Assembly: GCF_003018235.1 (NCBI RefSeq)
Contig: NZ_CP027438.1
DNA from: Escherichia coli
Lineage (GTDB): Bacteria > Pseudomonadota > Gammaproteobacteria > Enterobacterales > Enterobacteriaceae
Direction: 5' to 3' (one strand)
Length of the DNA: 64,000 nt
The position numbers were made by a program, and so were the translations under genes. The notes below the pieces were generated by a model. It worked only from the letters and a program-made list of their open reading frames with translations. It searched no databases and was not told the origin of the DNA. Below are positions 59,234-62,823 of the stretch, in pieces; positions within the stretch are counted from its first letter, which is position 1, and every line of letters starts with the position of its first letter.

Positions 59234-60043
59234 TTATTGACTAAATAAATCCATATATTTTTTAGGCGTTATGTTAAAGTTTCTTTTAAATACAGTAATA
59301 AAGTAAGAATAATTATCATAACCACACATTTGTGATATTCTCTGCACTGAAGCCCTTTTCTGTCGCAAGAATTTAGCTGCCGCGTTCATTCTTGCTGACA
59401 AGCAAATCTCCGAGAAGGTTGTATTTTCATATTGTAACTTTCTTTTTAGCGATGATGGACTAAAATATAGGTATTTAGCCATATCTTCAAGTGACCATTT
59501 TTTATCCAAGCTATTATATACAATATTGTATACTTTCTCCTTAAGAGTTGCCTCTGATGAACTTCTGATCACATAAGGTAATGAATTATTGGTAATAAAA
59601 TGTGAAAGAATATAATAGAATGAATAAATAATATCAGCTGAATGGAGGTCATTAAGCCTCTCTTGAGGTATATTTCCTACTTTACTCAAGATACTATTAT
59701 CATATGCTATGTCAACGGCTTTTATGACCCATTCATTTGCATTATCTGAAGTTCTTGCTTTACCTGTTTCTGATTTTATATCGTCAAATCCTTCGCAGAA
59801 TTTTTTTAAAACATAAGATGGTACAGGAATCAGTGAAAAAACAGGTTTTTCTTTTGATTTTACTGATGACAGACCTACCTTTATTCCTTTTTTTATAAAA
59901 TAAACACCCTCAGATATAGCATAGCAACATAAACTATCCATGTTGCATATAACAACGTTCCCTTGAGCCACATTAACTATAGTCGAATAGGCAACATAGT
60001 AGTTTTTAACCAAGTGTTTTTGTGTATGGGTATTTATATTCAT
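59234..60043 (-). CDS. AraC/XylS-family regulator (second Rns/AggR-like paralog)
   Basis: C-terminal double HTH (RISQMCGYDNYSYFITVFKRNFNITPKKY); AT-rich; divergent from a CexE/Aap-like gene. Confidence 0.75.
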   Translation of the reverse strand: MNINTHTQKHLVKNYYVAYSTIVNVAQGNVVICNMDSLCCYAISEGVYFIKKGIKVGLSSVKSKEKPVFSLIPVPSYVLKKFCEGFDDIKSETGKARTSDNANEWVIKAVDIAYDNSILSKVGNIPQERLNDLHSADIIYSFYYILSHFITNNSLPYVIRSSSEATLKEKVYNIVYNSLDKKWSLEDMAKYLYFSPSSLKRKLQYENTTFSEICLSARMNAAAKFLRQKRASVQRISQMCGYDNYSYFITVFKRNFNITPKKYMDLFSQ

Positions 60044-60977
60044 TCCATATACCTTATTGATATTTTTTTATCATTATTTCACGTAGCGATAACTTTTTCA
60101 TAAAACATACCTAAACACAAAATAAAAAGAGCTATATTTAAAATTATAATATTCTTGTTAACTCTGAATTGCGTATTCAATAACTACATTATTCTTTCTG
60201 AGAGAAAAACAACATTTTTTCGGTTTGATGGTTATTACTATCATTATAAGGTAAGGCTATTTTTATAATGGCACTTCATTTATTTTATGGTTATTTTTAA
60301 TAGGTTATCTACTGAAGATACCCCTTCCCCTCACACATAATAGGAACCTAGATAAAAAACCAGCAATAAACACCAGATTATCATGAACTGATTGATATGT
60401 TAATATCATAAATACACTAATGTCTACATTTAAATTTTTAATGCTTTTTTTTTGTGAATTTTTACTATTTATTTTTAGTGTGAAAATAAACATGATTTTA
60501 TAATAAAATTCTATGCTTAATCGATTATCTAACCAATATCAGAAATTTTTTTCGAATGATTACTAATGTGGAGCATCAAGCGTCCATTAATATTCGTTTT
60601 TTGTTTTTTTGTGTTTTGTGATGTTGGTCACATTTTTTATTTTATAACGTCCTGTCTGATACTGGGTCAAATCAACATATTAGATGACCTAGATAAGCAT
60701 TTATTCACGGATAGGGCCGCAGGCGTTTTTTAGTATTTCGTTCTCTCCGACAACGGTACCACATTTCGGTACATGTCATATGGACAATACGAAGCAAAAA
60801 AAGCAACTGAATTACGTAAGAATGGCTGGCTCACATTTGTCTCTCTGGAAAGGGGCTCTGAACACTCAATAAATGTTAATAACAGACCAATTAATCTTTA
60901 TTGTAATGCATCGCATTGATGTGACTTTTTTTTTGTATAGAATATTATTTTCTTTGTTTTATAAGGATATATTTATT

Positions 60978-61385
60978 ATGAAGAAAAAAATTCAATATTT
61001 TCCGTTTGCTCTTCTAATTGGTCTGAGTTTCAACTCCTTTGCAGGTTCGCATCAGCAACCTTGGACCCCAAGTATTCAGCCCAAAGACTGTATTGGCTTG
61101 AATTTTATATCGGGACAGTTTACAGCAGATACCAATATGGGAACTTTGTTTTTTAAAAACAGCAAACCAGAGTGTAAGGAGGTTATTGATAAGGGCTATG
61201 CCAGCGGTGTACACGGTATCGTTAAAGGCGATGTTGACTTCGATAAGTGGGGACCAACCATAAATTACGGCCTTCTAAACAATAGATTCAGCTATTATGT
61301 TTACCAGCATAGCCGTTACACGTTTCCAGCACCAATCAAGAAAGGAACTCAGCTTGAACTTGAATCTGCAGATTGGATTAGATGA
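60978..61385 (+). CDS. Small secreted protein, CexE/Aap (dispersin)-like, with Gly at mature position +1
   Basis: Signal peptide MKKKIQYFPFALLIGLSFNSFA then G-SHQQ; two Cys; paralogous to 62458-62823 (shared C-I-x-L, EC-[KR], GYA-x-GV motifs). Confidence 0.55.
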   Translation: MKKKIQYFPFALLIGLSFNSFAGSHQQPWTPSIQPKDCIGLNFISGQFTADTNMGTLFFKNSKPECKEVIDKGYASGVHGIVKGDVDFDKWGPTINYGLLNNRFSYYVYQHSRYTFPAPIKKGTQLELESADWIR

Positions 61386-61523
61386 TGCGAATAACGGCAC
61401 TGATCTTGTCTATCAGGAATTTTATTTAACATAATCTGTCTATATTATTACGTTTTCCTGTCAGATGGTTCTGGATATTTCAGGGGATCGCCTGACAGGT
61501 CATTCAGAACAACTAAACCGGTT

Positions 61524-62194
61524 ATGCAACTTCCGTGTAAGTTCACTGATTTTGAGCTAACCGACAGCAGAGACGCTGAACGGCTGGATCGATTTGCGCG
61601 AACGGCAGACGAGATACGCATTGCTGACCGGGGATTCGGTTCGCGTCCCGAATGTATCCGCTCACTTGCTTTTGGAGAAGCTGATTATATCGTCCGGGTT
61701 CACTGGCGAGGATTTCGCTGGTTAACTACAGAAGGAATGCGCTTTGACATGATGGGTTTTCTGCGCGGGCTGGATTGCGGTAAGAACGGTGAAACCACTG
61801 TAATGATAGGCAATGCAGGTAATAAAAAAGCCGGAGTTCCCTTTCCGGCACGTCTCATTGCCGTATCACTTCCTCCCGAAAAAGCATTAATCAATAAAAC
61901 CCGACTGCTCAGCGAGAATCGTCGAAAAGGACGAGTAGTTCAGGCGGAAACGCCGGAAGCAGCGGGTCATTACCGGAAGATGAATATTCAGCAGAGCAAG
62001 TGGCTGATTGTTACCGTCTGCGATGGCAAATTGAACTGGCTTTTAAGCGGCTCAAAAGTTTGCTGCACCTGGATGCATTGCGTGCAAAGGAACCTGAACT
62101 CGCGAAAGCGTGGATATTTGCTAATCTACTCGCCGCATTTTTAATTGACGACATAATCCAGCCATCGATGGATTTTTCCCCCAGAAGCGCCTGA
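61524..62194 (+). pseudogene. IS4-family transposase remnant (frameshifted C-terminal part)
   Basis: ORFs 61524-62144 and 62000-62194 in different frames; C-terminal YRLRWQIELAFKRLKS motif. Confidence 0.5.
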
Positions 62195-62457
62195 TCCGAA
62201 AAGAAAAACTAACTCGTTGTGGAGAATAACAAAAATGGTCATCTGGAGCTTACAGGTGGTCATTCGTGGGACAGTATCCCTGACAGCCTACAAAACGCAA
62301 TTGAAGAACGCGAGGCCTCGTTAAGACGATGCCTCGCGTTCTTCAGATGGTTCACCCCTTAAGTTAGCGCTTATGCACTACATCCCCTCCTTATGACATG
62401 GTTGTTCGCTCATTTTCACTCATTAGTATTATAAATAAGATACGAATAAGTGTAACT

Positions 62458-62823
62458 TTAGTACCAGTAGGTTAATACATTACCAACACCATTTATTTTA
62501 GCCCCATCGGGTAAAACCTCAGGAATTCCTAATTGCGATGATGTAACTTTTTCTCCTGGAGAAACATGTCCGACAAAGGTCTTCCAGTTAGTTGATTGAT
62601 AACCTTTACCGTATGACACTTCCCCACTAAAACCAACGCCTTTTGCGTACCCTTGGTTTATATAATTACGACACTCAGTTTTGTCATTCCATGAAATGGT
62701 GAAGGGATTATAAGATAATACTATGCAGTTTCTGGCATTAACTACTGACGTCTGGGATTGGCTTCCTGCAAACGCGGAAACGCTTAACAACATTAACGAT
62801 ACACTGAAGATCAACTTTTTCAT
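62458..62823 (-). CDS. Small secreted protein, CexE/Aap (dispersin)-like paralog
   Basis: Signal peptide MKKLIFSVSLMLLSVSAFA then G-SQSQ; two Cys; 121 aa. Confidence 0.55.
   Translation of the reverse strand: MKKLIFSVSLMLLSVSAFAGSQSQTSVVNARNCIVLSYNPFTISWNDKTECRNYINQGYAKGVGFSGEVSYGKGYQSTNWKTFVGHVSPGEKVTSSQLGIPEVLPDGAKINGVGNVLTYWY

Follow-up and report, generated by a model that had tools for sequence, protein, structure and literature searches.

Layout of the locus

The interval 59234–62823 of a 64,000-nucleotide stretch of Escherichia coli DNA (contig NZ_CP027438.1), here called the window, carries genes for two small proteins with predicted signal peptides, P1 and P2, and for an AraC-family regulator, reg2; the Aat acylation and export genes lie elsewhere in the same window. 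By profile, alignment and predicted fold, P1 and P2 belong to the CexE/Aap (dispersin, PF28204) family, in which they branch deeply, and they are probably cargo of the window's own Aat machinery. The interval contains the following features:

59234–60043, minus strand: reg2, an AraC/XylS-family transcriptional regulator of 269 amino acids (Pfam HTH_18 7.7e-15, HTH_AraC 1.4e-8)
60044–60977, no strand: AT-rich spacer of 934 bp between the divergent reg2 and P1 genes
60978–61385, plus strand: P1, CexE/Aap-family protein of an extended subfamily, 135 amino acids; the ATG at 60978 is the family-type start
61536–62392, plus strand: truncated IS421-like insertion sequence (IS) element of the IS4 family, 857 bp, 93.9% nucleotide identity to part of IS421
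62458–62823, minus strand: P2, CexE/Aap-family protein, 121 amino acids (family profile and fold match)

P1 and P2 are convergent, with the IS421 remnant between their 3′ ends. The mechanically called open reading frame (ORF) of P1 extends upstream to 60873. Within the remnant the transposase is broken into fragmentary ORFs only, and across its whole length the element matches, at the identity given above, the IS421 transposase regions of hundreds of plasmids. The layout therefore agrees with the original prediction, made from the letters of the window, in which two small genes flank an IS4-family remnant, one of them stands divergently beside a second AraC-family regulator, and the Aat genes are remote; the latter lie ~39 kb away.

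The window is a portion of an IncFIA-type E. coli plasmid. Among 72,556 plasmid records a single one matches it closely, and the same record is the one match in 5,426 complete E. coli genomes: NZ_CP076711.1 (L001), the 69-kb plasmid of E. coli O158:H23 CFIAFB20140388, which is 99.3% identical over window positions 59000–63200.

P1 and P2 are members of the CexE/Aap family

The assignment of both proteins to the CexE/Aap family, with a predicted glycine at position +1 and a cysteine pair, was the core of the original prediction, and it is upheld by profile, alignment and fold alike. A hidden Markov model was built from 35 family members, without the subfamilies of P1 and P2 and without the protein that is the nearest outgroup to P2; it aligns with both proteins over its full extent (model positions 1–115/116), scoring 90.5 bits for P2 and 70.0 bits for P1. 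The corresponding E-values over 704 six-frame window segments (2.8e-27 for P2, 6.3e-21 for P1) mean that the match is not due to chance, and no further six-frame segment of the window was returned at E ≤ 10. The 35 members were gathered with a profile (A3) that contains P1, P2 and close relatives, so the leave-out test is independent only in part. When the all-inclusive family profile is used, the best window segment after P1 and P2 reaches 4.4 bits (E 1.5). The family is small: when 1.84 billion representative proteins were searched exhaustively with a profile, no more than 39 family clusters (at 50% identity) emerged. It was first revealed by precomputed PF28204 'Dispersin' labels on relatives of P2 in a large protein collection, while most proteins of the P1 subfamily carry no such precomputed match.

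Pairwise comparisons point the same way. Searches with tblastn against CexE-like genes of enterotoxigenic E. coli (ETEC) gave E-values from 5e-7 to 8e-8, the latter for P2 at 35% identity. P2 is 33% identical to the CexE of strain H10407 and 32% identical to Aap, and P1 and P2, when matched to CexE and Aap, each outscore the comparison of CexE with Aap themselves (22.7 bits). The Ala and Gly columns on either side of the predicted cleavage site are invariant in a 13-sequence alignment with CexE and Aap and conserved at ≥90% in a 43-sequence alignment; the latter also shows an invariant cysteine pair (C38/C66 in P1, C33/C51 in P2) and, as invariant or near-invariant, the Gly and Gly-Val of a GYAxGV motif and a Trp near the C-terminus.

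Fold predictions were made with AlphaFold2 from input alignments that included Aap and CexE sequences. The P2 model (mean predicted local distance difference test score, pLDDT, 85) retrieves dispersin 2JVU as the top Foldseek match in the PDB (probability 1.00, template-modelling score 0.61). The top match of the P1 model (mean pLDDT 82) is CexE 9HHO (1.00), followed by dispersin 2JVU (0.95), and all remaining matches for either model have probabilities of at most 0.41. The relatives of P1 and P2 that were examined are annotated 'hypothetical protein' only. P1 and P2 add two unnamed subfamilies to the family, and together with the Aat genes they form a secretion system that is divergent, yet of a type already known rather than a new one.

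Predicted signal peptides and N-terminal glycine

Both N-termini consist of a basic n-region, a 12-residue h-region and a short c-region with small residues at −3 and −1. In P1 (MKKK / IQYFPFALLIGL / SFNSFA↓GSHQQ, the arrow marking the predicted cut) the signal peptide would comprise codons 1–22, with an S-F-A↓G junction and Gly23 (61044–61046) as the predicted mature N-terminus; in P2 (MKK / LIFSVSLMLLSV / SAFA↓GSQSQ) it would comprise codons 1–19, with an A-F-A↓G junction and Gly20 (62764–62766) exposed. These sites are predicted from the −3/−1 rule and from homology to the experimentally mapped site of CexE, whose junction aligns with theirs column for column. The mature N-terminus of CexE, GGGNS, was set by N-terminal sequencing (PMC7943197). 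In that system Gly+1 is invariant among 224 homologues and needed for acylation, the substitution G20E abolishing acylation of CexE; a single N-terminal Gly is enough for AatD to acylate mCherry, with extra Gly strengthening the labelling (PMC7943197). The P1 and P2 subfamilies begin GS (GT in one allele), as opposed to GG or GGG in most of the family.

Four distant members of the family (P0043, P0047, P0048 and P0050) have an apparent Ala, not Gly, after the predicted signal peptide (AIA↓AQ, AMA↓AG, SYA↓AN and AMA↓AS, respectively). These proteins either are cleaved at a different site or do not undergo glycine acylation.

Small size, export signals and the lack of a Pfam-A or NCBIfam match would also fit the idea that the likeness to CexE and Aap is superficial, and that P1 and P2 are classical lipoproteins of the Lgt/Lsp/Lnt route or unrelated small secreted proteins. 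We regard this as extremely improbable. Neither protein contains a lipobox; Gly occupies position +1, and the first Cys is at residue 38 in P1 and 33 in P2, far from the cleavage site, so a classical lipoprotein was rejected. Unrelated secreted proteins were effectively ruled out by the full-length profile matches of 70–90 bits together with fold matches confined to dispersin and CexE.

The Aat machinery of the window

Beyond the interval, the window encodes a complete set of Aat proteins and a second regulator, reg1:

10986–11774, minus strand: reg1, Rns/CfaD-like AraC regulator of 262 amino acids, divergent from aatD
12129–13349, plus strand: aatD, Lnt-like N-acyltransferase of 406 amino acids, from the ATG at 12129
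16669–20362, plus strand: aatP, aatA, aatB and aatC, encoding a permease, a TolC-like outer-membrane protein, a periplasmic adaptor and an ATP-binding cassette (ABC) ATPase

All five aat reading frames are open. The mechanical ORF of aatD begins at TTG 11883; it is the 406-residue form that matches orthologues end to end. AatP, AatA, AatB and AatC are 29–55% identical to their H10407 counterparts, and AatD is 28–29% identical to the AatD proteins of H10407 and CP091397 and retains Glu, Lys and Cys at the catalytic positions. Closer relatives are found in E. coli and E. coli-like DNA: the window AatD is 64% identical to the orthologue of locus L024 and 61% identical to that of L027 (the metagenomic, E. 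coli-like contig k141_72557 of ENA ERZ27295041), both of 406 residues, and the aat operons of L021 and L024 have 70–81% nucleotide identity to the window's aatPABC. Judged by these identities, the window represents a divergent Aat lineage.

P1 and P2 are old members of the family

The original prediction viewed P1 and P2 as diverged paralogues of a duplicated system. A recent duplication of one cargo gene has to be rejected, since the two proteins are 36% identical over 90 residues and fall into different deep clades of a neighbour-joining tree (constructed without bootstrap support). P2 groups with a 122-residue protein encoded adjacent to aat genes, and P1 groups with its distant relative P0035, beside the Aap clade. 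P1 and P2 are therefore old family members that were kept or brought together. They co-occur in the same orientation in the far more divergent locus L011, with synonymous divergence (dS) of ~1, and the pairing is therefore older than the IS421 insertion.

Gene neighbourhood connects both subfamilies with Aat genes. P2 has as its nearest outgroup the 122-residue protein encoded directly 3′ of aatPABCD in CP091397.1 (46% identity over the full length). The gene for P0035 lies 22 bp upstream of the aatD orthologue in L027, which ties the P1 subfamily to the acyltransferase. The surroundings of that gene pair (L027, 1–12686) hold the same set of virulence tools in a different layout: an EtpBAC-like two-partner secretion/glycosyltransferase operon stands divergently to a reg2 orthologue and is followed by DUF2919, the P1-like P0035, the aatD orthologue and then serine protease autotransporters of Enterobacteriaceae (SPATEs).

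The possibility that two family genes on one plasmid are unique to this lineage was rejected, as the ETEC O15:H11 plasmid NZ_CP024238.1 (L029) has two CexE-clade genes (7887–8255 and 34505–34861), which are close paralogues. In one of their products the signal peptide is followed by GS, and Arg replaces the first of the two conserved Cys; this gene may be a degenerating copy.

Related loci and probable IS-mediated rearrangement

A compact counterpart of the window's scattered genes exists. Over ~10 kb, L024 contains, in order, a reg2 orthologue, aatCBAP, a reg1 orthologue (an AraC gene with 48% identity to reg1), a gene for a 119-residue Dispersin-family protein, the aatD orthologue and a gene for a 122-residue Dispersin-family protein. 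A reg2 orthologue adjoins aatC in at least six other contigs: it is convergent to aatC across a gap of ~90 bp both in L021–L023 (E. coli DEC6E and others; 80% identity to reg2) and in L024–L026 (61% identity). Homology between loci of this type and the window breaks at 59230, just past the reg2 stop codon, and at ~20356, the end of aatC; it also ends near the reg2 start codon. In the window, the place that a reg2 orthologue holds in the related loci is taken by IS100 (istA/istB; 20363–22786), which starts ~620 bp after aatC, and IS fragments occur throughout.

The module of reg2, P1, IS421 remnant and P2 is intact, with the same spacing around the remnant, in L005–L010, all of the window's own plasmid lineage. 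An intact P1 gene is also found on the chromosome of CFIAFB20140388 (L020, NZ_CP076709.1, 12647–13054), where the sequence is 95.8% identical to window positions 60332–61450; this copy carries the upstream region from 60332 and has no reg2 beside it. The chromosomal P1 is accompanied by IS100, an SLT transglycosylase gene and an IS4 fragment, in an island between yfcG and yfcF that is filamentous-phage-like (a Zot-domain protein, a replication endonuclease and a GspD secretin).

These comparisons are explained most economically if the window descends, through scattering by ISs, from a compact Aat locus with two cargo genes and two regulators. IS100 is the likely agent of the rearrangements, because it flanks the chromosomal P1 and lies after aatC in the window. 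Two regulators and two cargo genes are, going by gene order, a conserved trait of this Aat lineage; they recur in L024, and the notion of a duplicated regulon peculiar to the plasmid does not survive. The claim that P1 is paired with its own regulator finds no support in the comparison: the divergent arrangement of reg2 and P1 looks like a secondary product of IS-mediated rearrangement, given that reg2 orthologues adjoin aatC and that homology stops near the reg2 start codon.

The two regulators

reg1 is 36% identical to CfaD over 253 residues (E = 5e-44), a full-length match that marks it as a true Rns/CfaD relative. The similarity of reg2 to CfaD is 30% and limited to residues 120–267, about 150 at the C-terminal end, in BLASTP; its best solved relative is Rns (phmmer, E = 1.7e-18, spanning residues 35–267), and its best curated NCBIfam model is HilD (142.8 bits against a cut-off of 354; 1.4e-41). 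The Rns-family label initially given to reg2 thus holds in part. The C-terminal AraC-type double helix-turn-helix domain (HTH_18, HTH_AraC) is present and Rns is the nearest solved protein, but the CfaD match covers the C-terminal part alone and the HilD score stays below the cut-off; reg2 is only loosely Rns-like and is placed by these matches in a HilD/Rns-like class of virulence regulators. Its E. coli orthologues, at 51–94% identity, form their own E. coli-restricted group. reg1 and reg2 are 32% identical to each other, in the DNA-binding half only.

A promoter-like, sigma-70-type site (TTGATG-16-TAGAAT) is located at 60916–60943, upstream of P1. The part of the spacer from 60332 onwards travels with P1, and P1 alleles share conserved upstream sequence. 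Upstream of P2, identity across alleles is 67–81% in the proximal 100 nucleotides and decays further up, which is not clearly above the divergence at coding level. The AggR-type box WWWWWWWTATC is uninformative: it occurs 49 times in the window where 14.6 would be expected, the copies are scattered over AT-rich coding DNA, and none has the spacing to the promoter-like site of P1 that such a box should have. A search for 12-mers (≤1 mismatch) common to the regions upstream of P1, P2, aatP and reg2 yielded nothing useful.

These observations bear on an arrangement of duplicated, parallel regulons, in which reg2 would activate P1 and perhaps P2 while reg1 would control aatD/aatPABC or other cargo, giving two switchable circuits. 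The divergent placement of reg2 and P1 in a module kept intact in L005–L010, the recurrence of two regulators with two cargos in L024, and the large difference between reg1 and reg2, which could allow them to recognise different sites, all fit such circuits. On the other side, reg2 orthologues adjoin aatC, not cargo, in L021–L026, so that the pairing is lineage-specific and probably made by ISs; the chromosomal P1 of CFIAFB20140388 has its upstream region without reg2 beside it; and no motif is common to the four upstream regions. We therefore consider parallel regulons unlikely.

Selection and allelic variation

P2 and reg2 are under purifying selection, with ratios of nonsynonymous to synonymous substitution rates (dN/dS) of 0.10–0.17 and 0.13–0.16, respectively, and so is P1 at long range (~0.16–0.20). 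Among close P1 alleles (window 60978–61385, L005:7559–7969, L007:2067–2474 and L009:2326–2733) the picture is different. The window differs from L005/L007 by 23 nonsynonymous changes to 1 synonymous (binomial p ~0.03), and L009 differs from L005 by 11 to 0; P1 is 5.9% diverged, compared with 0.5–0.9% in the flanking reg2, IS remnant and P2. On this small sample, the pattern suggests that P1 is a surface protein under diversifying selection, with relaxed constraint as an alternative to be kept in mind.

The window P1 contains an A7 tract at codons 3–5 (60984–60990; ATGAAGAAAAAAATT). With the A5 tract of NZ_CP076711.1 (~12432–12445) the ATG falls out of frame, and the Prokaryotic Genome Annotation Pipeline (PGAP) calls only an 82-residue fragment of P1 there. 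Slipped-strand switching would account for the difference, as would an assembly error in the homopolymer.

Could P1, or both proteins, be family relics that no longer work as Aat cargo, being exported by Sec as periplasmic or secreted proteins and escaping acylation by virtue of their GS start, or decaying amid IS debris? The unusual N-terminus, the frameshift in the sister plasmid, the position of the genes among IS fragments far from aat, and the departure of close P1 alleles from simple purifying selection could all be taken in this sense. The same alleles, though, show an excess of nonsynonymous changes beyond neutral expectation, which points to diversifying selection on a functional surface protein and not to decay; intact ORFs with all family invariants persist in many alleles, down to 65% identity; and the long-range dN/dS values of P1 and P2 are low. 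Moreover, one Gly suffices for AatD in ETEC (PMC7943197), and the P1-like P0035 adjoins aatD. Relics are, in our judgement, very unlikely.

A proposed Aat system with two cargo proteins

We think it probable that P1 and P2 are Aat cargo of one divergent, IS-scattered system with two cargos and two regulators. This reading builds on family membership, predicted fold, cleavage-site homology, the five open aat frames and comparative architecture; acylation, export, surface location and all regulatory links would follow from it. Sec would export both proteins, and signal peptidase I would cut after Ala22 in P1 and Ala19 in P2. The N-terminal Gly thus exposed would be N-acylated by the plasmid's AatD, and AatPABC would then carry the beta-sandwich protein, lipidated on its glycine, to the cell's outer face, where it would serve as a coat protein. 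Apart from Aat, no bacterial pathway is known to attach lipid to an N-terminal glycine and present the product at the cell surface. Expression would most likely be driven, within a single Aat regulon, by the AraC-family activators that the plasmid encodes, with reg2 as an Aat-lineage-specific regulator whose gene may ancestrally have stood just beyond aatC. The present layout would derive from a compact locus that held both regulators, aatPABC, aatD and two cargo genes.

Several points weigh against this reading of P1 and P2 as Aat cargo. Pfam-A contains no match for either protein and NCBIfam nothing meaningful, and sequence searches against solved structures are marginal (dispersin at E = 0.67 with a single sequence, CexE at E = 0.095 with a subfamily profile). 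At 28–55% identity between the window's Aat proteins and the characterised ETEC system, the substrate rules are extrapolated. In CexE, the substitution G21E reduced acylation (PMC7943197); the GS start of the P1 and P2 subfamilies, considered together with this effect and with that of fewer Gly residues in mCherry, means that acylation of P1 and P2 could be less efficient. To these are added the frameshifted P1 of NZ_CP076711.1 and the lack of any identifiable regulator binding motif upstream of P1 or P2.

A more elaborate version can be drawn from the same data, namely a dual-cargo coat in which two structurally distinct glycine-lipidated proteins, from different deep clades of the family, share one Aat machine and are switched separately by the Rns-type reg1 and the HilD-like reg2, with P1 as a rapidly diversifying and possibly phase-variable antigen. 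The latter idea comes from the nonsynonymous excess, combined with the A7 tract of the window and the out-of-frame A5 tract of its sister plasmid. We hold this version to be unlikely; if true, it would imply coat switching or immune evasion, not simple redundancy.

Most proteins of the 135-residue P1 type go undetected by the Pfam Dispersin model and are annotated as hypothetical, and one E. coli Aat lineage regularly carries two different cargo genes with two AraC regulators. P1 and P2 would widen the substrate range by a GS N-terminus and a longer predicted beta-sandwich, and they offer natural test cases for recognition by AatD and AatPABC.

Other features of the plasmid

A type IV pilus/type II secretion system (T2SS)-like biogenesis cluster at 204–9735 adjoins the Rns-like reg1. 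It includes a GspE/PilB-like ATPase, a PilC/GspF-like platform protein and probable pilin-like ORFs; a prepilin peptidase and a lytic transglycosylase are taken from the annotation of the matching region in CP076711.1, the one plasmid in PLSDB that the cluster matches. It may be an uncharacterised colonisation-factor pilus controlled by reg1. On the minus strand at 33346–36770, a peptidase-domain ABC exporter of the bacteriocin/microcin type (714 residues) and an HlyD-family adaptor (427 residues) form a second export system on the plasmid, unrelated to Aat. The plasmid is rare, its arrangement occurring in one of 5,426 complete E. coli genomes; like the colonisation-factor plasmids of diarrhoeagenic E. 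coli, it unites Aat genes with an Rns-like regulator and with a type IV pilus cluster private to it.

Comparison with known systems

The locus reveals no new mechanism; it resembles the Aat–CexE/Aap pathway of ETEC and enteroaggregative E. coli (EAEC). CexE of ETEC H10407 (plasmid p948, structure 9HHO) is, like P1 and P2, a small Sec-exported protein with an Ala↓Gly cleavage site, a Cys pair, GYAxGV and a C-terminal Trp, and it shares with P1 the predicted beta-sandwich for which 9HHO is the top match. Its plasmid is likewise of virulence type, with aatPABC, a separate aatD and a Rns-family regulator. P1 and P2 are, however, only 29–33% identical to CexE and begin GS rather than GGGNS when mature, and P1 exceeds CexE by 15 residues, two of its loops carrying insertions and its C-terminal part a motif of its own, ESADWIR; the Aat proteins are similarly distant from those of H10407, as given above. 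Aap (dispersin) of EAEC (2JVU, PF28204) has the same family and predicted fold, its structure being the top match for P2 and the second for P1, whereas sequence identity is 24–32%. AggR and Aar of EAEC are absent, and a six-frame search of the window found no ANR/Aar-type anti-activator. With the group of Rns, CfaD and AggR, and with HilD, reg2 has in common the C-terminal domain with two helix-turn-helix motifs, and reg1 the full-length likeness to CfaD; both regulators are encoded in AT-rich virulence-plasmid DNA beside Aat parts.

In the classification of Icke et al. 2021, the window shares its architecture, an aatPABC unit with aatD and cargo each more than 1 kb off, with the rarest class, in which all three are more than 1 kb apart (4.1% of 826 systems; PMC7943197). 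That survey sought a full Aat set plus 'an Aap or CexE homolog' per accession, and its available portion does not report multi-cargo accessions; the available portions of published CexE/Aat accounts, covering eleven ETEC variants and 224 homologues, likewise describe no lineage with two cargos and two regulators. The window and L024 differ in this respect from the systems of that survey in having two cargo genes from different deep clades together with two AraC regulators.

The nearest known relative of P2 is the 122-residue protein of CP091397.1 (cluster P0014, present in more than 1,600 contigs), which equals P2 in length and has the NPF..W..C and GVGFSG..SYG motifs in common with it. Its gene, however, follows directly after aatD and its product starts GGGGS after cleavage, whereas P2 is encoded ~39 kb from aat within the window and starts GSQSQ. 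Finally, the two cargos of the window come from different deep clades of the family, in contrast to the close paralogues of NZ_CP024238.1.

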